From contig JASGCN010000002.1 in NCBI GenBank assembly GCA_030054135.1, forward strand, positions 21,484 through 85,483: a stretch of 64,000 nucleotides of DNA, read 5' to 3'. Origin of the DNA: Alphaproteobacteria bacterium. GTDB taxonomy: Bacteria; Patescibacteriota; Minisyncoccia; Phycocordibacterales; JABAAK01. Numbering within the stretch: the stretch's first letter is position 1; the number at the start of each line of letters is the position of its first letter. A program made the position numbers and the translations under genes. Below the pieces are notes generated by a model. It made no database searches. It was given only the letters and a program-made list of their open reading frames with translations, and was not told the origin of the DNA. Below, in pieces: positions 2,792-48,790 of the stretch.

Positions 2792-3529
2792 TTAATTTAT
2801 AATCTCTAAAATGTGTTTTTGTGTGTGAAAGTATAGATCGGCACCTTTTTTATGAGTAGAAAATATGTCTGCGTTAATGGGTATTGATATACAATAACGA
2901 GGTTCATGTATATTTTTTACTAATCGGCCATATCCGACACATGTGCCTGAAATTTCTAAAAATTTTTCATACGATTGAATTTCGATACCGTGGGGGTTTG
3001 CTCGTGACGCGTGAATTACCGTATCTTCTGTAAGGTACATACCAACATGGTCAATCCCTTCAGGTATTTTTGTTCCTGGAATATACTCAACGCTTTCGTA
3101 ATATATGTTTCCTTTACCAGTGTTGGTAAACACCATGTCTCCATACACACAATCGTTTTTATTTTTTGGTTGGGGGATATTTTTTAAATTTTTAACATAG
3201 AGATATTTGTCTATTGAAATTGAAGGTATGTATATACCACGATACAGATATGAAACAAGCGAAGAACAAGAAAAAAAATTGGGAGCATCAAGGCGCATAT
3301 TGCTTGGATTTTTGTATTGAGCATTCAATACTACTGGTATACGCTTTTGTATTTCATTATACGGAGAAATGAGTTGGGTAGGGTAGTGGGCGTTTAACTT
3401 TTTTAGAGTGTGTTCTGTGTGTGTGCATGTGGATGTGTCTATGGATATATCGTAATTCATAGTATGAGTGTATTGTAGAATACTAGTATATGCAACACAA
3501 TAATACAAAAAAAGAATGCAAAAAAACAA
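2792..3529 (-). CDS. NlpC/P60-like (papain-fold) cell-wall peptidase family protein
   Basis: Cys...His...His arrangement: FFSCSSLVSYLYR, NDCVYGDMVF, IDHVGMYLTEDTVIHAS resembles NlpC/P60/DUF1287 motifs. Confidence 0.5.
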   Translation of the reverse strand: MFFCILFLYYCVAYTSILQYTHTMNYDISIDTSTCTHTEHTLKKLNAHYPTQLISPYNEIQKRIPVVLNAQYKNPSNMRLDAPNFFSCSSLVSYLYRGIYIPSISIDKYLYVKNLKNIPQPKNKNDCVYGDMVFTNTGKGNIYYESVEYIPGTKIPEGIDHVGMYLTEDTVIHASRANPHGIEIQSYEKFLEISGTCVGYGRLVKNIHEPRYCISIPINADIFSTHKKGADLYFHTQKHILEIIN

Positions 3530-3531
3530 AT

Positions 3532-3768
3532 ATGTGTCAGATGTGTCTTATGCCTGAAGAAAAAGATACAGGTGTTCGTGAACGGGCTGATTTTTGTAGC
3601 TATTGTTTTAAACATGGGAAGATACTTTTTAAAGGCACTAGAAAAGAATTTCAAACAATGGTGTATAAACAAATGCGTACCGATGGTGTTTCTTGGATTA
3701 TGGCACATGTGTATGCGTGGATGATACGCTTTGCGCCATATTGGCGAGGCAAACAAACAATTGACTAG
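3532..3768 (+). CDS. Putative zinc-ribbon protein (Zn_ribbon_2-like: CQMC...FCSYC)
   Basis: MCQMCLMPEEKDTGVRERADFCSYCFKHGKILF pattern matches putative zinc ribbon family; start chosen at internal ATG so it is divergent from 2792..3529. Confidence 0.5.
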   Translation: MCQMCLMPEEKDTGVRERADFCSYCFKHGKILFKGTRKEFQTMVYKQMRTDGVSWIMAHVYAWMIRFAPYWRGKQTID

Positions 3769-3881
3769 CTATTGATGAGTGGATGCCTTATACTACAGTT
3801 GTAAGAGATAACTACATTGTTACAATGTTGACGGTGCAAGTGAGCTTACGTTATTATTATTGATTTTGATATTTGATATTT

Positions 3882-4310
3882 ATGAACAAAAAATTATATG
3901 TCGGTGGTCTTGCGTGGGCAACTACTGACGAGTCATTACAAGCTTACTTTGCATCAGCAGGAGAAGTTGCTTCTGCTCGTGTAATTCGTGAACATGGGAC
4001 TAATCGTTCACGAGGATTTGGTTTTGTGGAAATGGCCGATGAGGCTGGCGCACAAAAAGCAATTGACACACTTAACAACACAGAACTTGATGGGCGCGCT
4101 ATTTCAGTTAATGAAGCTCGTCCTGAAGATCCTAATCGATCACAAGGTGGTGGTGGAGGCGGATACCGAGGCGGTGGCGGAGGTGGATATCGAGGCGGTG
4201 GCGGAAGCTACGGCGGAGGTTCACGCGGAGGCTACGGCGGAGGTTCACGCGGAAGCTACGGCGGAGGTGGCAATCGTTACGAAAACAAATCATCTAACGG
4301 AGGGTACTAA
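3882..4310 (+). CDS. Glycine-rich RNA-binding protein with RRM domain
   Basis: KLYVGGLAW...RGFGFVEM RNP2/RNP1 motifs; C-terminal GGGGGYRGGGGG repeats. Confidence 0.85.
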   Translation: MNKKLYVGGLAWATTDESLQAYFASAGEVASARVIREHGTNRSRGFGFVEMADEAGAQKAIDTLNNTELDGRAISVNEARPEDPNRSQGGGGGGYRGGGGGGYRGGGGSYGGGSRGGYGGGSRGSYGGGGNRYENKSSNGGY

Positions 4311-4336
4311 TAATAGTATTTGTTAGAGGTTTAGAA

Positions 4337-4378
4337 AAACAAACGCGCGGAAAGAATCTATTCTTTTCCGCGCGTTTG
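4337..4378 (+). terminator. Rho-independent terminator (AAACGCGCGGAAAGAAT...ATTCTTTTCCGCGCGTTT)
   Basis: Long perfect inverted repeat downstream of RRM gene. Confidence 0.55.
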
Positions 4379-4392
4379 TGCTATCATGGCAT

Positions 4393-4848
4393 ATGAACGA
4401 TTGGAAACAATTTACTGAAGAACAAAAAAAACAAAAACTTGCAGAAATGGATTCAGACACAATTGATGTTACACAACACGCGGGAACAGAAGCTCCATAT
4501 TCTCACCCATTGGATTCACATTATGAAAAAGGTATTTATGTTGATATTATTTCAGGAGAACCTCTTTTTTCATCAACGGATAAATTTAATAGTGGGTGTG
4601 GATGGCCTGCGTTTTCAAAACCAATTAATAAGGCAATGGTAAAGGCTATTAATGATACATCACACGGTATGCGACGCATAGAAGTGCGAAGTTCTGTTGC
4701 TGGTTCTCATTTGGGGCATGTGTTTGAAGACGGCCCTGAAGAATCAGGAGGGCTTCGATATTGTATCAACGGAACATCTCTTCGTTTTGTAAAATTTGAA
4801 GATATGGAGAAAGAAGGATACGGAGAGTATAAACAATTCGTTTCATAA
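4393..4848 (+). CDS. msrB: Peptide-methionine (R)-S-oxide reductase MsrB
   Basis: [27 protein letters not shown] conserved SelR motifs. Confidence 0.85.
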
Positions 4849-4849
4849 T

Positions 4850-5407
4850 ATGACAGAAAAACTAATACTTGCAGGGGGTTGTTTTTGGTGTGTTGAAAGT
4901 GATCTAAAAAAAATTGATGGGGTTATGACTGTTACTAGTGGATACACTGGTGGAGATAAAAATCACGCAACCTATGAAGATGTATGCTCTCACAACACTA
5001 CTCACCGTGAAGCAGTGGAAGTGGTCTATGACAGTAGTAAAACATCTGCTAAACAAATTATTCAATTTTTTCTTGATCACATTGATCCAACAGACGGAGG
5101 AGGACAATTTGCAGATAGAGGACATCAATATGAGCCAGTGATTTATTACAAAGACGATGCAGAAAAACAAATTGCACACGAAGCACTGCAAGAACTTGAA
5201 GCAAGTGGTATTTATGAAAAACCTATCGCAGTGAAATTAGAAGAAGTAAAACCATTTTTTGAAGCCGAAGAATATCATCAAAATTATTCAGAAAAAAATA
5301 AAGGACACTATATGCTCTATCGCAAAGGAAGTGGAAGAGAAGATCAAGTGGCTCGAGTGTGTCAGATTCGTTTAGAAAAAGGAGTTGATTGGAAAGAGGT
5401 GAAGTAG
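4850..5407 (+). CDS. msrA: Peptide-methionine (S)-S-oxide reductase MsrA
   Basis: LAGGCFWCVE active-site motif; start set to MTEKL directly after msrB stop. Confidence 0.85.
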   Translation: MTEKLILAGGCFWCVESDLKKIDGVMTVTSGYTGGDKNHATYEDVCSHNTTHREAVEVVYDSSKTSAKQIIQFFLDHIDPTDGGGQFADRGHQYEPVIYYKDDAEKQIAHEALQELEASGIYEKPIAVKLEEVKPFFEAEEYHQNYSEKNKGHYMLYRKGSGREDQVARVCQIRLEKGVDWKEVK

Positions 5408-5429
5408 TTTTTAGTGGTATATTTTACAT

Positions 5430-6959
5430 ATGACAGAATATGTTTCACCACGAAGGCCCGTGCGTCCCAAACCAGAACCGGAGCCGCCTGCTCCTGTTGT
5501 ATTATCTGAACAAATACAAAGAATACCTGCGCCAGCATTTGAAAGTTCTAAGAAATTAAAAAGAAATAAAAACAGAAAACATAGATATTATTCTTTTGAA
5601 GATGAAAATAGATCGGTGAAATCTATTGATATTTTTCGCGGTATTATTGGAGAAAAAGAAGGCATTAATCAAGATGGATGGTTTTTTAATAAAAAATTTG
5701 GGATCTATGGAGTTTTTGATGGTGTATCAATAAGTTCTGGAGATCGTCCTAGTCAGGCACATGATTTAGTAAAAAAATTCTCTACATATATTAGTACAGA
5801 TACCACATTGGCAGAATGCGGATTTAAACCAGATGAAGAAACAATGACTGCAGATGAAGTTCGCAATGCATTTAATTTATTATATGAAAAATTTATTAGT
5901 TCTAATCAGAGTACATTTCTTCTTTCTCAAAAAAACCACTTTACCATATCATGTGTGCGAATTGGAGAACCGATAACAGCAATACATATGGGGGATTCGC
6001 AGGCGTATGTGCATTCACCGTCTTCAGATATTCATCCACTTAACGGGTATCGATATTTTCAAGCTCCACATACACCAGCACTGTTTAATACTTTACCACG
6101 AGATGTTGCATTTATTGATATTGAACGAGGTTCACAAGAAACTAAACAAAAAATAAAAGACATTATATCTGATTCGTATCTTCATATAAAACAGATTCCA
6201 AGAGATGATGTAGGTGGTATTGTTCTTACAACGGATGGCATAACAGATAATATAAAAAAAATTAACATGCAAGAATTTATCCAGGATTTCCAGCATTGGT
6301 TTGGAAACAGATATTTTTCGACGTCTTTTTTGATTGATAACAAAACAATTTCCAAAGAAGAAATAGAAGGTGTGGCAGATGAGTGGAAACATTTTTGGGG
6401 AGAAAGAAACAGAGAAGAGTCTGATTTTATGGGAAATATGATTTATGATATATGTGAAGAATTTAGTAAGCGATTCCATGCTATGCAAAAAGAAAATGAA
6501 AAAGGAGACTATGTAGATCTTTCTAATGAAATTTCAAATACCATGTATAGATATACCAACTTGCTTAAGGAAAAAAATATACCATTAGAGCATGGAAAGC
6601 TACATTTCATTAATTTATGTAGTACGGCATATGATTTTCTTGAGAAAAATCAAAATACATCTGTGGCTACTATAGTAGATGAATTTTTAGAAGAGCGATA
6701 TATGTATATGCCGACTAAGCATTCTAATATAAAATTTTTATTGAAAGAAGTGATGGCACCATTATTTTTGGTGTACTTTGGATTTGTGCATGAAACATTT
6801 ATACAACAAGAAAATGTTTTGAAGATATATGCTTCTAAAACAAAAGAGCTCCCCAAGAATGAAACAGTATGGAATAATTTTTTTAATGAATTAGAAAAGA
6901 ATCCACTAAAACCTGATGATGCAACATTGATGTATATTGGACTTAAATCTAAACAGTGA
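5430..6959 (+). CDS. PP2C/SpoIIE-like Ser/Thr phosphatase domain protein with Pro-rich N-terminus and ~230-aa C-terminal extension
   Basis: IYGVFDGVSISSGD, MGDSQAYV, LTTDGITDNI resemble PP2C motifs; N-term RRPVRPKPEPEPPAP. Confidence 0.45.
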   Translation: MTEYVSPRRPVRPKPEPEPPAPVVLSEQIQRIPAPAFESSKKLKRNKNRKHRYYSFEDENRSVKSIDIFRGIIGEKEGINQDGWFFNKKFGIYGVFDGVSISSGDRPSQAHDLVKKFSTYISTDTTLAECGFKPDEETMTADEVRNAFNLLYEKFISSNQSTFLLSQKNHFTISCVRIGEPITAIHMGDSQAYVHSPSSDIHPLNGYRYFQAPHTPALFNTLPRDVAFIDIERGSQETKQKIKDIISDSYLHIKQIPRDDVGGIVLTTDGITDNIKKINMQEFIQDFQHWFGNRYFSTSFLIDNKTISKEEIEGVADEWKHFWGERNREESDFMGNMIYDICEEFSKRFHAMQKENEKGDYVDLSNEISNTMYRYTNLLKEKNIPLEHGKLHFINLCSTAYDFLEKNQNTSVATIVDEFLEERYMYMPTKHSNIKFLLKEVMAPLFLVYFGFVHETFIQQENVLKIYASKTKELPKNETVWNNFFNELEKNPLKPDDATLMYIGLKSKQ

Positions 6960-12980: not shown

Positions 12981-15923
<2,943 letters not shown>

Positions 15924-16044
15924 AAATGAAAGAACATAACACATGAAAGCAAATAACAACACAATTATTTTATAGATACAATGTGAAGAAAGTTGCCTTT
16001 GCTATTGAATTGTCATATACTGAAAGAGGATACTTAGTATTTAA

Positions 16045-16152
16045 CTTTGGTGATATACTCGTGGAGGTAACACCCGTTCCCATTCCGAATACGGCAGTGA
16101 AGGGCCACAGAGGTGATGATACTCGAAAGGGGAAAGTAGCTCGTCGCCAAAG
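16045..16152 (+). rRNA. rrf: 5S ribosomal RNA
   Basis: CACCCGTTCCCATTCCGAATACGG core; terminal helix CTTTGGTG...CGCCAAAG. Confidence 0.8.
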
Positions 16153-39155: not shown

Positions 39156-39370
39156 GTATCTACTACAAGGGTACTCGCACCCAGTTAGTGTATGCACTAA
39201 TTAAAACCTTTTTTAAGGGCGAAATTCACTTGTATTTGCTCTTTAACCAGTATTGATAGAATAATAATCTACAAGAAAAAAAGAAAGTGGTAATCGTATA
39301 TTTACTTTTACCCCGATCTTTCCTTTTGATTTGAAATTAAAGTGATTTGATGATAACAAAAAAAATATAT

Positions 39371-40828
<1,458 letters not shown>

Positions 40829-41023
40829 CTTTTGAGCAATCTGTAATAAGATTGTTTGGTCAAATGTCTTTACTTTATGTAAAGACAAGATAATAACACA
40901 ACATCTCTAAAGAGTGTTCGGTATAGCCCATACACGATAGGGTAGGAAAGAACGGGGTAAAAGTAAGTAGACGATATCATAGATTATTTTTTCTATACAA
41001 TATTGGATAACGCGAAACAAAAA

Positions 41024-43524: not shown

Positions 43525-44217
43525 ATGGGCATACTATACATAGTAGCTACACCAATTGGTAATTTATCAGACATCACTTTTCGAGCAGTGGATATATTAA
43601 AAAAAGTATCTGCCATATATTGTGAAAATCCTCGTGTCACTAAAAAACTTACCACCCACTATTCAATGTCTGCAAAATTATATACGTACAACGCACATTC
43701 TTCTTCACGTGTTCTTAACTATGCGATTAAACTTCTTGAAAGCGGGGAAGATGTAGCTTTAGTTAGTGATGCAGGAACACCAACTATTTCAGATCCAGGA
43801 GTTCGTTTTGTGCGAGGTATTCGGGCAGAACTTCCAGATGTGTCTATCATTGCAATTCCGGGCCCTTCAGCTTTAGTGAGTGCACTTTCTATTTCTGGGG
43901 CACCGGCGAGCGAATTTATTTTTTATGGGTTTTTACCACAAAAAAAAGGTCGTTCTGCTTTGATAAAAGAAATTGCAGAACAAAGTCGCACTTCTGTGTT
44001 ATACGAAGGGCCACACAGATTGCTGAAAACACTAGAAGCATTTTCAGAGTGTCTTGATCCATTGCGAGAGGTTGCAGTCGCTCGCGAACTTACAAAAATA
44101 CACGAAGAATGTATTGTTGGAAATATCGCGTATGTACTTTCGTACTATACAGCCAATCCAGATCGCGTGCGTGGAGAATGTGTCATTATTATTTCTTCAT
44201 TGTATACACGAGTGTAA
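43525..44217 (+). CDS. rsmI: 16S rRNA (cytidine1402-2'-O)-methyltransferase RsmI (tetrapyrrole-methylase fold)
   Basis: MGILYIVATPIGNLSDITFRAVDIL...IYCE N-terminal signature. Confidence 0.8.
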   Translation: MGILYIVATPIGNLSDITFRAVDILKKVSAIYCENPRVTKKLTTHYSMSAKLYTYNAHSSSRVLNYAIKLLESGEDVALVSDAGTPTISDPGVRFVRGIRAELPDVSIIAIPGPSALVSALSISGAPASEFIFYGFLPQKKGRSALIKEIAEQSRTSVLYEGPHRLLKTLEAFSECLDPLREVAVARELTKIHEECIVGNIAYVLSYYTANPDRVRGECVIIISSLYTRV

Positions 44218-44269
44218 CCAGGGGTGCCATTAATCGCTACATAATATTTCTGTGTGATATACTGTGTAT

Positions 44270-44416
44270 ATGTATACTCGACAAATAGCCTACATGGGTG
44301 TGTTTTATATTATTCTTGCGTATTTATTTTTGCCATATCTATGGGTGCGTGTTCTTATGGCATTGGGTGGGGTTCTGCTTCTATATATTGCCTACAAACA
44401 ATACAAAAAAAAGTAA
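44270..44416 (+). CDS. Possible 48-aa two-TM membrane peptide (MYTRQIAYMGVFYIILAYLFLPYLWVRVLMALGGVLLLYIAYKQYKKK)
   Basis: Hand-translated; below ORF-track size cutoff; hydrophobic with basic C-tail. Confidence 0.25.
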   Translation: MYTRQIAYMGVFYIILAYLFLPYLWVRVLMALGGVLLLYIAYKQYKKK

Positions 44417-44476
44417 ATACAACATGTGCAGAGTAAACACGCTATACTACAAGTGATACAAGATTGATGTAGATAT

Positions 44477-44788
44477 ATGAAAGATATTACCTATTTAGGA
44501 GAAAGCAATGCACGTGGAGAACGTATTCGTTTTGGCATAAAAGAAGAAGATCGTGCACGACACATGTATATTATTGGGCAAACTGGTACAGGTAAATCAA
44601 CGCTCATCGAAAACATGGTGATACAAGATATCGTTAATGGAAAAGGATGCATTTGTCAAAAAAATTCTTCTTATCGATCTTTCAAAAGGGACCATAGGGG
44701 AAACAAATGCAAAAATGTTAGGAGTATTGTTTACCACGAAAGTGTATCTTGCTGCACTTTCTCGTGCAGATGTATCTACCAAGAATAA
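44477..44788 (+). pseudogene. Internally deleted, 3'-truncated duplicate of the P-loop ATPase gene at 46826 (first ~180 coding nt identical, then junction to a segment ~47518-47640 with 1-bp indel)
   Basis: 44436-44656 identical to 46785-47005 (including 40 bp upstream of ATG); 44657-44782 ~95% identical to 47518-47640. Confidence 0.7.
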
Positions 44789-44836
44789 CAACTGATTCTA
44801 AAAAACATAAATTTTTGTGATATACTTCTCTATAAT

Positions 44837-45352
44837 ATGAAAAAATATATATTTTATATATTGTCTATAATAATTATATTAATTATATTCTCTCTTTGGG
44901 GGGAAAAATCTCAAAATAATAATTATTTTTTTATGAAATTATTACTCAATCAGTCACCAGAATATGTTGAAAAAATACTTGGCCACCCGGATACAGTGAT
45001 AAAACTAACTGATGATTGTTTTGACTTGAAAATACCACTTTGCGCAACAACTACCTACCAAAACAAAAAATTTGAAGTTGATTATTATGATGGTTTATTA
45101 AAAACCATAGTAATAAATGGGCTTGACGATCAAGCATACAATAGCTCTTTTATTGAAAAAATAGATTTTTCTGGTAAACCATTAATAAACAACTTTTATA
45201 ATATTCGCTGGGACACTACCACACTTCTTGAGGCAGGAATAAAGGAAATTGTGATTTTTCCAAAAAAAGACGACGCTTATTTTATAAGATACGCGATGAT
45301 ATTTGTCGACAAAGAATATAACAAACCATTTCTCTTAATGGAAAAAAAATAA
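44837..45352 (+). CDS. Hypothetical protein with N-terminal signal anchor (171 aa)
   Basis: ORF track; very AT-rich; convergent with SIR2-like gene. Confidence 0.45.
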   Translation: MKKYIFYILSIIIILIIFSLWGEKSQNNNYFFMKLLLNQSPEYVEKILGHPDTVIKLTDDCFDLKIPLCATTTYQNKKFEVDYYDGLLKTIVINGLDDQAYNSSFIEKIDFSGKPLINNFYNIRWDTTTLLEAGIKEIVIFPKKDDAYFIRYAMIFVDKEYNKPFLLMEKK

Positions 45353-45369
45353 GGTTCTATAGGAGTTAT

Positions 45370-46575
45370 CTATCTTGGTATATAAAAATTCTTGTTATCA
45401 AATGGTGCATACACAATCTGTGGTCTATTTTTGTCACCAACATCATACTTAATTGAAATTGAAGAATCTATATAGTCGTTTACATATTTTTTATATTTCG
45501 CATAATCTTCTAGAGGACACTGGATATGAAATTTTAACTGTTGCAATTGTGAACTACTATGCAACAATATACCAATAATGTCTTGATCTACATCTTTATT
45601 TGAAAAAGGAAACGAATATCCTATAATAACAACATCGGTGTATTGACTAGATTGTGCTGCAGTAAGATTTTTGGCATCTTTTCCAGACCATAAGAATTTA
45701 CTCAATTTTGTATTCCTGTTTTTTGAAGAATTTTCCCATGCAAAATTAATAAGTGATATGGTCCCACGTGGGTTCAAAAGCATATTAGTCCATTCTTTAA
45801 TAAATGTATCTAGTGATAATGAATTAAATCTTAACGGATATAGCTCAGTTACATTGCCATTTATTTTATAATGTTGCTTGTTATATATAAGTGATCTAGT
45901 GAGAGTTAGTGGTTTTGGATAAATAATAGGATCATTTTGTAATTTATTAAAAGCAATTTCTAATTGACCATCATAATTCCAACTGATAATTTTAATATTT
46001 TTTGGAAATTTTGGTTTCATTTCTTTATTCCCGCAAATATCAAGTAAAAAATTAATATACCGCTGGTCTTGGCTGGTTTTATTTGGGATATTTTTTTCAT
46101 TATTTTTTTGATATGCACTATAAAAGCGACACAAAATTTCAATCACTTTAAGTTTTTCTTTATCTTGTTCTGGTTTTAAAACATTTACTAGATAATTTTG
46201 TAAATCAAAGCAATTCGATTTTTTCTCCCGTACACCCTCAAAATGATTAAAAATGTCTTTGTCGGAGCATGATTCTTCAAAATAAAAAAATAATGCAAGA
46301 ATTAATTTATATTTGCGATATATATCTGAATTATTTGTAAAATATAAAAATTTAAAATAAGTATCGACTGTTTTATGTTCTTTTATTTCATTGATAAAAG
46401 CAAGATAATCAGATAAAAAATCATTAATATCTTGAGATGTTTGTTCATTATGATGCAGCTCGAATTTCAAAAATGCCCACAATAACTCTAATCGCTCTAC
46501 CATCTCATTAACACAAGGAATTGCATTAGCACTTGCCCCAGCACCAAGCCAATATAATATATTTTTATTTGCCAT
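45370..46575 (-). CDS. SIR2-like (SIR2_2 / DHS-like NAD-binding fold) domain protein, 401 aa
   Basis: N-terminal ILYWLGAGASANAIP (GAGxS), central KIISWNYDGQLE (NYD motif), C-terminal VVIIGYSFPFSNKDVDQDI (GYSFxD-like) match the SIR2_2 family pattern. Confidence 0.55.
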   Translation of the reverse strand: MANKNILYWLGAGASANAIPCVNEMVERLELLWAFLKFELHHNEQTSQDINDFLSDYLAFINEIKEHKTVDTYFKFLYFTNNSDIYRKYKLILALFFYFEESCSDKDIFNHFEGVREKKSNCFDLQNYLVNVLKPEQDKEKLKVIEILCRFYSAYQKNNEKNIPNKTSQDQRYINFLLDICGNKEMKPKFPKNIKIISWNYDGQLEIAFNKLQNDPIIYPKPLTLTRSLIYNKQHYKINGNVTELYPLRFNSLSLDTFIKEWTNMLLNPRGTISLINFAWENSSKNRNTKLSKFLWSGKDAKNLTAAQSSQYTDVVIIGYSFPFSNKDVDQDIIGILLHSSSQLQQLKFHIQCPLEDYAKYKKYVNDYIDSSISIKYDVGDKNRPQIVYAPFDNKNFYIPR

Positions 46576-46825
46576 ATATGGTGTAGTATATCATTCTCAC
46601 AAAATGTGGGTGCATTGAGTGCGGAACAAAAAAATAACAATTAAGCAACTATCATGACTTACATATTATAATGATATTGGAATTTCTTCTGTCGCACCAC
46701 CACAACGCATATAGTAGTGTTACCCCGTGCGAGTGTTTAGACACTTTCAGCGATATAAGTAGATTTTATAGATAATAATGATACAACACGCTATACTACA
46801 AGTGATACAAGATTGATGTAGATAT

Positions 46826-48790
46826 ATGAAAGATATTACCTATTTAGGAGAAAGCAATGCACGTGGAGAACGTATTCGTTTTGGCATAAAAGAAGAAGAT
46901 CGTGCACGACACATGTATATTATTGGGCAAACTGGTACAGGTAAATCAACGCTCATCGAAAACATGGTGATACAAGATATCGTTAATGGAAAAGGATGCA
47001 TTTGTATGGATCCACACGGACAAACAGTGGAACAGATTCTTGAATATATTCCAGAGTATCGCTTGAAAGATGTTATTTATTTTGCTCCACACGATCAATC
47101 ATTTCCTATTGGACTCAATATCATGGAAGATGTTGGGTACGATAAACGGCACTTAGTAGTGAGTAGCTTACTTTCTGCATTTGCAAAAATATGGGGAGAA
47201 AATTCATGGTCTGATAGAATGGAAAATATTCTTTCAAATACATTATTAGCGTTGCTTGAATTCCCAAACACAACACTTCTTGATGTTGGGCGTATGTATT
47301 CAAGTAAACAATTTAGAAAAGAAGTGGTAGATAACATAAAAGATCCACAGGTGAAACAATTTTGGACAGAAGAATTTGCAGCGTATACCGAACGATATGC
47401 AGCTGAAGCAACTCCCGCTATTCAAAACAAATTAGGACAGTTCACATCAAACCCAATTATTAGAAACATTGTTGGCCAAGTAGACAGCGCTTTTAATTTT
47501 AGACAAGTGATGGATGATAAAAAAATTCTTCTTATCAATCTTTCAAAGGGAACTATAGGGGAAACAAATGCAAAAATGTTAGGAGTATTGTTTACCACAA
47601 AAGTGTATCTTGCTGCACTTTCTCGTGCAGATGTATCTACTCAAGAGCTTGCAGCACTTCCTCCATGTACCTTTTATGTTGACGAATTTCAATCATTTGC
47701 GAGTTCAACATTTGCAGGTATTTTGTCTGAAGCTCGTAAGTATAAACTACATTTAGTAATTGCACACCAATACATTGATCAACTTGAAGAAGAAGTACGC
47801 AATGCAGTGTTTGGAAACATTCCTACCATTATTGCATTTCGGTTAGGGCCACTTGATGGTGAGTTTATGGAAAGAATATTTTCTCCAGTGTTTGAAGAAA
47901 AAGATATCATAACATTGCCACGATATTCTATGTATTTAACACTCTGCATCGATGGGGCAGGATCGAGACCGTTTTCCGCTCGATCGTTGCCGCCTCCACC
48001 TCTGCCTGTACGCTCTATTCGAAATGAAGTACTATCGTACTCTCGAGAACAGTACACAACACCTCGTGAAGAAGTAGAGGAACGTATTAATGCTCGCCTT
48101 ACGCAATATGCAAAAAATGTACCCCCTCCTCAAAGACCAGTAGCACAAAATAATTTTAATAACCCCACTAATGAAAGAAATTATGGTGTGCACAACAATC
48201 AAAGATCATACATGCAAGCCTCTTCTTCGTATGAATCTAATACTCCTCCCCAAATGCGACAGGTTCCTCCCATGCCCCAACACACTGGGGTTTCAGCCAC
48301 TGTGGGTACAGTCGAATCAGATGCTAACAAAACTATTATGATTCGTTCAAAAGTAGCAAGGCGCGCTACTCGTGTTGGTACTGGTAGACGAGTAGAAGAT
48401 ACAACAGGTGTGAATATAAAAAAAACAACTAGAACACCTCCATTGTCGGATATCCCTCGTGCCACACTGCTTAAAAAAACTACAACTGTTAAAAAGAAGG
48501 AAGTTGCCAAAGCAGAAACCAAAGTATTGGATAATGGTATTGAAACAGTATCGCAAAAAAAACCAATACAAAAGAATATAGTAAAATCACGGGTTAAAAA
48601 AGTATCACCATCAGTGGATATCTCTCCGGTATCTCCCGTACAAGATAAAATATTAACGGAAGTATTAAAAAAATTACAATCTCATCCAGAACATCTAAAA
48701 AAGTCTACGCCATTGTTTGCGCCACCAACAGGGAGAGAAGAAGGATGGGTCTCTCTTAGTGATGTGTTAAAAAAAGAAAACGAACTATAG
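46826..48790 (+). CDS. FtsK/HerA/TraD-superfamily P-loop ATPase (TrwB/VirD4-like nucleotide-binding domain), soluble, with ~250-aa Pro-rich disordered C-terminal tail
   Basis: Walker A IIGQTGTGKST at residue ~35 followed by DPHGQ; Walker B-like CTFYVDEFQSFAS; KYKLHLVIAHQ; low-complexity tail. Confidence 0.5.
   Translation: MKDITYLGESNARGERIRFGIKEEDRARHMYIIGQTGTGKSTLIENMVIQDIVNGKGCICMDPHGQTVEQILEYIPEYRLKDVIYFAPHDQSFPIGLNIMEDVGYDKRHLVVSSLLSAFAKIWGENSWSDRMENILSNTLLALLEFPNTTLLDVGRMYSSKQFRKEVVDNIKDPQVKQFWTEEFAAYTERYAAEATPAIQNKLGQFTSNPIIRNIVGQVDSAFNFRQVMDDKKILLINLSKGTIGETNAKMLGVLFTTKVYLAALSRADVSTQELAALPPCTFYVDEFQSFASSTFAGILSEARKYKLHLVIAHQYIDQLEEEVRNAVFGNIPTIIAFRLGPLDGEFMERIFSPVFEEKDIITLPRYSMYLTLCIDGAGSRPFSARSLPPPPLPVRSIRNEVLSYSREQYTTPREEVEERINARLTQYAKNVPPPQRPVAQNNFNNPTNERNYGVHNNQRSYMQASSSYESNTPPQMRQVPPMPQHTGVSATVGTVESDANKTIMIRSKVARRATRVGTGRRVEDTTGVNIKKTTRTPPLSDIPRATLLKKTTTVKKKEVAKAETKVLDNGIETVSQKKPIQKNIVKSRVKKVSPSVDISPVSPVQDKILTEVLKKLQSHPEHLKKSTPLFAPPTGREEGWVSLSDVLKKENEL

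Follow-up and report, generated by a model that had tools for sequence, protein, structure and literature searches.

The window analysed here, a stretch of 64,000 nucleotides (nt) of contig JASGCN010000002.1, carries two divergent genes that are the subject of this report. The first, on the minus strand (45370-46575; all coordinates are those of the window unless a locus is named), encodes a stand-alone SIR2-fold protein of 401 amino acids, and the second, on the plus strand (46826-48790), encodes an intact P-loop ATPase of 654 amino acids that resembles VirD4 and TraD, i.e., the type IV coupling proteins (T4CPs). The SIR2-like gene lies in a cassette enclosed by two perfect copies of the 5' end of the ATPase gene. 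As set out below, the ATPase is the target into which this cassette has integrated and not the partner of the SIR2-like protein, the two genes having become neighbours by accident of insertion. Our reading of the locus as a whole, which adds to the insertion a putative role of the SIR2-like protein in conflict or defence, is probable.

On the plus strand, the locus is preceded by a gene for an rsmI-like methyltransferase (TP_methylase; 43525-44217; Pfam PF00590, E 6e-31) and by a 50-amino-acid open reading frame (ORF) with two hydrophobic segments (44264-44416). Shortly after it begins the first copy of a 221-nt direct repeat (44436-44656), which is 100% identical to the second copy (46785-47005) at a spacing of 2,349 nt. 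Each copy consists of 41 nt of the ATPase leader, with a TATACT element resembling a -10 box, and of ATPase codons 1-60. No third copy is present elsewhere in the 64-kb window, and a chance origin of a perfect repeat of this length is ruled out. The first copy is part of a fragment of the ATPase gene (44477-44788, plus strand) made up of codons 1-60, one extra base (44657) and codons 232-273. Its second part (44658-44779) matches an internal segment of the intact gene (47519-47640, codons 232-272) with 96% identity (5 of 122 nt differ), and allowing one gap extends it to position 44784. The net result is a deletion of 512 nt and a frameshift after which the ORF ends out of frame, so the upstream copy is a dead gene. 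A preliminary description of this DNA had reported both the perfect 221-bp repeats around the SIR2 gene and its companion ORF and the frameshifted upstream remnant, and both observations are confirmed.

Between the repeats lies the inserted cargo (44785-46784), which comprises an ORF of 171 codons (ORF171), the SIR2-like gene and 209 nt of unique upstream DNA. The guanine-plus-cytosine (GC) content of the cassette, taken from 44780 to 46784, is 28.1%, compared with 35.5 ± 2.6% in windows of the same size, which places it among the lowest 0.8%. ORF171 (44837-45352, plus strand) begins with a hydrophobic anchor and is an ORFan: its product matches nothing in Pfam, PADLOC, NCBIfam or PHROG, a homolog search of 5.8 billion proteins returned only ORF171 itself, and no relative was found in the 80 SIR2-like loci or the 83 ATPase loci described below. 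The divergent intergenic region of 250 nt (46576-46825) is a chimera, the part from 46576 to 46784 being cargo DNA and the part from 46785 to 46825 being the duplicated ATPase leader. A promoter-like match, TAGATA-17-TATACT, spans the boundary of cargo and repeat at 46769-46797 (a match to the consensus only); scans for terminators and for sigma-70 promoters performed no better than on shuffled sequence. The 9-mer TGATATACT is similar to an extended -10 element and is found three times 0-10 nt before a start codon: at 44255-44263 (small ORF), at 44818-44826 (ORF171) and, on the minus strand, at 46585-46593 (SIR2-like gene). This placement hints at leaderless transcripts or transcripts with very short leaders.

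The ATPase was assigned by profile searches. Three T4CP-type Pfam profiles match above their cut-offs (TrwB_AAD_bind with 34.9 bits against a cut-off of 20.5, T4SS-DNA_transf with 32.5 against 20.1, and TraG-D_C with 25.4 against 22), as does DUF87. The protein starts MKDITYLGESNARGE, reaches its Walker A motif (GQTGTGKS) at residues 34-41, and has no hydrophobic segment and no N-terminal membrane domain. Residues 1-430 share 60-70% identity with thousands of proteins, the closest relative being only 70% identical, and the tail after about residue 430 is variable, rich in proline and lysine, and lineage-specific. Relatives that bear names come from Parcubacteria, Paceibacteria, Kaiserbacteria and Adlerbacteria. 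To judge from its sequence, the ATPase is a widespread, conserved chromosomal VirD4-like homolog of Patescibacteria. A published survey found 5,713 VirD4-type homologs in 2,918 Patescibacteria genomes, of which 148 lie near virB4, and its authors propose that the gene may have been exapted to other functions (PMC12102498). Among the immediate neighbours of the window ATPase there is neither a virB4 nor a relaxase gene, although no scan of the whole window was aimed at them. The ATPase core (46826-48115) also strongly matches phrog_5156 (E 3e-59), a family of unknown function, and the PADLOC model mad8 (E 3e-16), so the protein has relatives in phage or prophage sets and in a candidate defence-system model. 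A second ATPase paralog is found within 8 kb in two of the relatives' loci, L005 and L156.

The surroundings of the ATPase were compared across 83 loci, each taken with 8 kb on either side. In 38 of the 61 informative relatives, the ATPase is preceded by an rsmI gene of the same orientation, and the three closest relatives examined (L004, L005 and L006) share the order rsmI, small membrane ORF, ATPase, with the ATPase start within a few tens of nt of the small ORF. The counterparts of that ORF (L004:6816-6968, L005:6846-6995 and L006:6818-6997) resemble the window's 50-codon ORF only weakly in sequence and correspond to it by position. The window has the same rsmI gene and the same small hydrophobic ORF, followed by the dead fragment, with the intact ATPase gene 2.35 kb further on. 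Because the fragment follows directly on rsmI and the small ORF, exactly where the relatives keep their intact gene, it marks the ancestral site of the ATPase. The suggestion in the preliminary description that a cassette had been inserted into a resident ATPase locus is thereby borne out.

Two further features of this region deserve mention. A small hydrophobic ORF with two predicted helices (about 50-120 codons) and a recurring pattern, G-x-L...P-F/L-x-G-x-P, lies directly upstream of the ATPase in 22 of 74 loci, and elsewhere just after rsmI. Its product might serve the anchor-less ATPase as a membrane partner, but the linkage is only partial. The narrower idea that it is the split-off anchor of the ATPase itself is weakened by its being directly upstream of that gene in only 22 of 74 loci and following rsmI in others. 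The distance from rsmI to the ATPase varies between 190 and 4,272 nt. We also considered this interval as a hypervariable hotspot, an idea that was dropped since the large gaps are mostly filled by two conserved genes, one for a DUF4015-like protein (18 loci) and one for a membrane protein (14 loci).

The pairing of SIR2 with a HerA-like ATPase had been described beforehand as a known defence architecture, of which this would be a variant or a new form. We therefore considered whether the SIR2-like protein and the divergent TraD-like ATPase constitute a two-gene defence system related to SIR2-HerA (Nezha). Relatives of the ATPase were found in none of 80 SIR2-like loci (10 kb on either side), and SIR2-like genes in none of the 83 ATPase loci; nor, as shown below, does the SIR2-like family have a conserved neighbour, and the proposed pairing is not upheld. 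HerA models match the ATPase only over its P-loop (residues 27-66), and the observation that the ATPase lacks a HAS-barrel stands, because with Walker A at residues 34-41 there is no room for one. The ATPase is moreover a conserved chromosomal gene with a synteny of its own, the same layout occurs in another lineage with a cargo that is not SIR2-like (see below), and the divergent spacer that the two genes share is itself a product of the junction between cargo and duplicated leader. A two-gene system is thus very improbable, and we are highly confident that the cassette is an insertion and that the SIR2-like protein and the ATPase are not functional partners.

How the cassette arrived can be proposed from the arrangement of its parts. 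The ancestral state would have been rsmI, the small membrane ORF and the VirD4-like ATPase. A foreign low-GC cargo of about 2 kb, the ORFan together with the SIR2-like gene, would have entered at the 5' end of the ATPase gene through homologous recombination between the resident gene and an ATPase 5' fragment that an incoming DNA circle carried. A single crossover of this kind, i.e., a Campbell-type insertion-duplication with the 221-nt repeat as the active block of homology, is expected to leave a 3'-truncated dead copy, then the cargo, and then a complete gene behind a duplicated leader, which is the order observed. The reverse event, recombination between the two repeats, would release a circle of 2,349 bp and restore the ancestral locus exactly, in agreement with the loss of the cassette predicted earlier. 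For the Campbell-type mechanism specifically, we consider the chances about even.

The two matching blocks of the fragment differ in their degree of identity, with 0 mismatches in 221 nt against 5 in 122 nt (Fisher p = 0.005). Of the differences in the second block, four are synonymous and fall on third positions (p = 0.016), while the fifth changes asparagine to aspartate in the fragment, at a site where both the intact ATPase and L006 have asparagine. The second block thus diverged under purifying selection, which points to another functional allele, e.g., that of the donor, or to changes that arose in the intact copy. Under the insertion model, its divergence of about 4% would reflect the functional allele of a related donor, or else a homogenisation that reached the long block only; either way, it is crossover or gene conversion that has preserved the identity of the 221-nt block. 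The mosaic also bears on an origin in situ, in which, with no circular intermediate, the 5' region of the ATPase gene was duplicated in tandem, the upstream copy decayed by internal deletion and truncation, the cargo was gained separately between the two copies, and the longest block stayed identical through gene conversion. Gene conversion bounded by the deletion junction would account for the contrast between 0/221 and 5/122, and the single non-synonymous change is found in the fragment. Neutral decay of the fragment, however, sits poorly with the excess of synonymous differences, more independent events are needed, and it is left unexplained why cargo should sit exactly between the copies in two unrelated lineages. 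We regard an origin in situ as unlikely.

The second of these lineages was found by screening the 83 ATPase loci for self-similarity. One further instance of the layout came to light, in L121 (JGI metagenome contig Ga0075158_10005551, about 51% GC; positions 3150-6692 of that locus). Here, a copy of the 5' end of that genome's own ATPase, at about 3202-3301, precedes the intact gene (4659-6692) by about 1.4 kb; 65 nt from the ATG onwards are identical, and the leader is similar in part. The cargo between them is a gene of 425 codons on the opposite strand (3320-4597), with a GC content of 37-41% compared with 50-53% in the flanks, whose product has a twin-arginine-like signal and an HExxH motif and no Pfam domain. 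Lineage, assembly and cargo all differ from those of the window, which speaks against a one-off artefact of assembly and in favour of the ATPase 5' end as an integration target.

An explanation at the level of the assembly was nevertheless weighed, namely that a circle of 2,349 bp was threaded into the contig or that strain variants were joined at the repeat. A perfect repeat of 221 nt exceeds typical assembly k-mers and read lengths, the spacing of the repeats corresponds to a closed unit of 2,349 bp, and the mosaic of identities would suit a mixture of strains. On the other hand, the deletion junction and the five substitutions are real sequence and not the product of a collapse, the right-hand junction of cargo and repeat must exist in some molecule, and a 2.3-kb circle devoid of a replication gene is unlikely to persist; the independent assembly of L121 has the same layout as well. 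We consider this explanation improbable, and even if it were true, it would still imply recombination of a cargo-borne ATPase fragment with the resident gene.

Several points count against the insertion as we describe it. The layout was found in only 2 of 84 ATPase loci, and from the contig sequence, integration cannot be distinguished from an episomal circle that was joined in by way of the 221 nt it shares with the chromosome. No recombinase was found in the cargo (ORF171 and the SIR2-like gene) by scans with the profile libraries, and a circular form was not seen. Finally, perfect identity over 221 nt beside a block that has diverged by 4% calls for gene conversion or for repeated excision and reintegration.

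The SIR2-like protein itself proved to be of interest independently of the ATPase. Its motifs (ILYWLGAGAS, IISWNYDGQLE, YKINGN and IIGYSFPFSNKDVDQD) correspond to conserved positions of a family whose profile we built from 45 homologs and whose residue conservation we counted across 200 members. The conserved positions are GAGAS (11-15), D71, R172, N200-Y-D202, N239-G240 and G319-Y-S-x-P...N326...D330. The window protein has no match in Pfam, PADLOC, NCBIfam or PHROGs, even at E 0.1. It falls below the gathering threshold of Pfam SIR2_2 (PF13289), with no match at E <= 0.1, a profile that weakly matches 8 of the 45 members (best E 8e-5), and the PADLOC SIR2 models, which give weak matches in 6 of the 45, also leave it below threshold. 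A match to GST in a single-sequence phmmer search against the PDB was spurious. The Rossmann-type SIR2 fold is recognisable by structure comparison. The NAD-binding GAGxS loop, which follows strand 6-10 in the model, is kept as GAGAS in at least 198 of 200 members. The asparagine of the NxD motif, N200, is present in all 200 and D202 in 199. When the family profile was searched against the PDB, its NYD aligned with the NYD of KomC. Of the earlier assignment to a SIR2_2-type fold, the fold is corroborated by structure comparison, by the GAGAS loop and by the alignment of NYD to KomC, while the SIR2_2 profile is not. It can be concluded that the 401-amino-acid protein belongs to a large unnamed branch of the SIR2 superfamily whose structurally nearest relatives are the defence-type SIR2 NADases. 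At the extreme C-terminus, a short F-x-x-P motif (residues 397-401; 45370-45384) varies hardly at all, F397 and P400 being conserved in 90% or more of the members, and is a candidate tail for oligomerisation or for insertion into an active site.

The position of the catalytic histidine is occupied by N239, followed by G240. The replacement noted in the preliminary description (KINGN) is a property of the whole family, with asparagine in 199 of 200 members; it is thus a fixed trait and not decay of the window copy. The profile-to-PDB search placed the "lNG" of the family on the "FNG" of the KomC(H146N) variant, the asparagine falling on residue 146. About ten more polar residues are invariant (D71, R172, N200, D202, Q204, E281, S321, N326 and D330). 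A catalytic histidine is needed in KomC, FAM118B and ThsA-type enzymes, and FAM118B requires both H206 and N163 for activity (PMC12700824). The only SIR2 clade without a catalytic histidine that we found in the searchable literature is that of the class M sirtuins (SirTM), in which an invariant glutamine replaces it; these are protein ADP-ribosyltransferases, and changing the glutamine to histidine abolishes their activity (PMC4518038).

A profile search with the family returned about 1,935 clusters (at 50% identity) at E <= 1e-30 and 3,272 at E <= 1e-3. Hundreds of homologs were found, all labelled hypothetical and lacking precomputed Pfam domains, and the members listed are all single-domain proteins of about 320-450 residues. 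Most come from Bacteroidota, with some from Patescibacteria, Alphaproteobacteria and phages, and the distribution is patchy and multi-copy. Several Bacteroidota genomes have two copies (L018/L071, L044/L046 and L067/L070), and the metagenome-assembled genome from which the window was taken has a second paralog, 29% identical, on a contig of 206,783 nt (P0014, QM526_00570).

The gene context was followed in the 80 SIR2-like loci, 79 of which entered the clustering of neighbours. No conserved neighbour emerged; the most common cluster was seen at 8 of 79 loci, and its position varied. Within 6 kb of the SIR2-like gene, 15 of the 80 loci (19%) have a restriction-modification gene of type I (HsdR/HsdM) or of the MmeI type, and the SIR2-like gene is usually co-directional with that operon and the last, 3' gene in it (L026, L050, L031, L072, L041, L044, L070 and others), a position that suggests co-expression. 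The neighbours in L091 are the type III restriction-modification genes Mod and Res. Recurrent neighbours further include tyrosine integrases, in 6 loci, and XRE regulators, in 7. Family members were found on 10 IMG/VR contigs, on at least two of them beside phage genes: in L089 the member adjoins a RusA-like protein and a large terminase, and in L087 head-morphogenesis-like proteins. The homologs from small genomes (L001, L003 and L007), like the window gene, have housekeeping neighbours, so the defence context is mainly a signal from Bacteroidota. The closest named Patescibacteria homolog (L001/L010:7450-8364, Paceibacterota JAIPIA010000001.1) is convergent with genes for a NUDIX hydrolase and a nucleoside 2-deoxyribosyltransferase-like protein, i.e., enzymes of nucleotide or ADP-ribose metabolism, and this is a single instance.

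From fold, residues and contexts we infer that the SIR2-like protein is an NAD+-binding effector of conflict or defence that works on its own. The conflict or defence role is somewhat better supported than its absence. That the protein also turns over NAD+ is a possibility we hold tentatively and with less than even confidence. If it does so, the chemistry would likely be independent of histidine, either a transfer of ADP-ribose as in SirTM or a cleavage of NAD+ with another residue acting as the base. The restriction-modification and phage contexts together with the invariant polar residues are the reasons why we favour an active, stand-alone, NAD+-using conflict effector.

There is, however, evidence that pulls the other way. 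His-to-Ala mutants of canonical SIR2 NADases are inactive according to the literature, and a KomC variant with the same His-to-Asn change has been deposited in the PDB, which together make a non-catalytic, ligand-binding role a serious alternative. The arginine that partners the glutamine of SirTM has no demonstrated equivalent here, although the invariant R172 is present. The association with restriction-modification rests on three gene clusters and comes without a formal background rate, and the neighbours in the small-genome loci named above are housekeeping genes. The protein could accordingly be a sensor, sponge or regulator that binds NAD+ or ADP-ribose, or a housekeeping metabolic protein of Bacteroidota that has now and then been transferred. 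Besides the near-universal loss of the canonical histidine, whose mutation kills the SIR2 NADases, and the housekeeping neighbours, the Paceibacterota homolog beside the NUDIX and deoxyribosyltransferase-like genes would suit such a role. Against it, about ten further invariant polar residues suggest a working active site, and a single-domain protein with no conserved partner has no effector to regulate. The patchy, multi-copy distribution in restriction-modification, integrase and phage contexts also speaks against it, and SirTM illustrates that an amide residue at the histidine position is compatible with catalysis. A non-enzymatic role thus seems rather unlikely, and the active effector remains the reading that we prefer.

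A more far-reaching proposal, which we regard as speculative, is that the family of about 1,900 clusters constitutes a class of stand-alone immune enzymes with a SIR2 fold that is both new and widespread, with an invariant asparagine and a histidine-independent mechanism. The enzymes might, for instance, ADP-ribosylate a target in the phage or the host, in the manner of SirTM with its glutamine, and not simply deplete NAD+; they would often be added to restriction-modification operons to provide a second line of defence. Secondarily, small cassettes in Patescibacteria might spread by carrying part of the 5' end of a highly conserved gene as an anchor of homology for RecA-mediated integration.

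The remainder of the window is ordinary chromosomal DNA, with genes for a Mur ligase, SecD, GroEL, an aminoacyl-tRNA synthetase and UvrB. Its rRNA genes are unlinked: 23S-5S (12982-16152) and 16S (39365-40829) share a strand but are separated by about 23 kb, and neither is accompanied by tRNA spacer genes. The lack of linkage is consistent with Patescibacteria. The name given to the assembly by NCBI, "Alphaproteobacteria bacterium", stands against the Patescibacteria-like ATPase family, the synteny of rsmI and ATPase, and the many large ORFs that lack Pfam domains, which suggest Parcubacteria or Paceibacteria within the Patescibacteria, and it may be a taxonomic mislabel.

These results have several consequences. 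A new SIR2-ATPase defence architecture is not upheld, which spares follow-up effort. What the window does reveal is a large SIR2 branch with an invariant asparagine that current Pfam, NCBIfam, PADLOC and PHROG models do not capture. An active family would extend the chemistry known from immune sirtuins; an inactive one would represent a conserved NAD-binding pseudo-enzyme in conflict systems. The locus also offers a clean case of reversible gene gain in an ultra-small Patescibacteria genome, apparently by homologous insertion-duplication. As the layout was seen twice with different cargo, it bears on how accessory genes are gained in organisms that depend on recombination and are poor in mobile elements.

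Comparison with characterised systems places the SIR2-like family apart from each of its possible counterparts. The defence-type SIR2 NADases, i.e., ThsA, SIR2-HerA (Nezha), KomC of Kongming, Avs5 and PsSIR2, form the 'SIRim' branch (10.1101/2024.09.18.613514). The window family differs from them in the asparagine at the catalytic position and in having no fused or neighbouring SLOG, HerA, KomB, STAND or pAgo component. In contrast to ThsA of Thoeris, the window protein is single-domain, with no SLOG or TIR match in the protein or its neighbours, and in contrast to SIR2-HerA, the adjacent ATPase has neither a HAS-barrel nor a co-occurrence across genomes. Compared with SirTM, the family has asparagine instead of glutamine, lacks a verified counterpart of Arg192 (although R172 is invariant), is without the SirTM operon (macrodomain, GcvH-L and LplA2) or any conserved neighbour cluster in the 79 loci, and has no sequence similarity detectable with hidden Markov models. 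The filament-forming, non-canonical vertebrate sirtuins FAM118A/B (PMC12700824) share with it an equivalent asparagine, N163 in FAM118B corresponding to N200, while the family has asparagine where FAM118B needs H206.

The ATPase, for its part, fits well among the VirD4-type T4CP homologs of Patescibacteria, with the same Pfam profiles, 60-70% identity and no evident adjacent virB4 or relaxase gene, and differs from them only in its C-terminal tail and in the upstream cassette. Canonical T4CPs (VirD4, TraD and TrwB) have the N-terminal transmembrane anchor that the window protein lacks. As for the insertion, its likeness is to Campbell-type insertion-duplication and to elements that target the 5' end of a gene: the target remains intact downstream, a truncated copy lies at the opposite side, and direct repeats flank the whole. 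SXT/R391 in prfC is an integrative element of the latter kind, which targets the 5' end of its gene and supplies a replacement 5' end. Unlike site-specific integrative elements, the window cargo carries neither integrase nor recombinase, and its repeat consists of 221 nt of gene sequence and not of a short att core. A long repeat of gene sequence in a cargo without an integrase thus points to homologous rather than site-specific recombination as the way in which the SIR2-like gene came to stand beside the ATPase.

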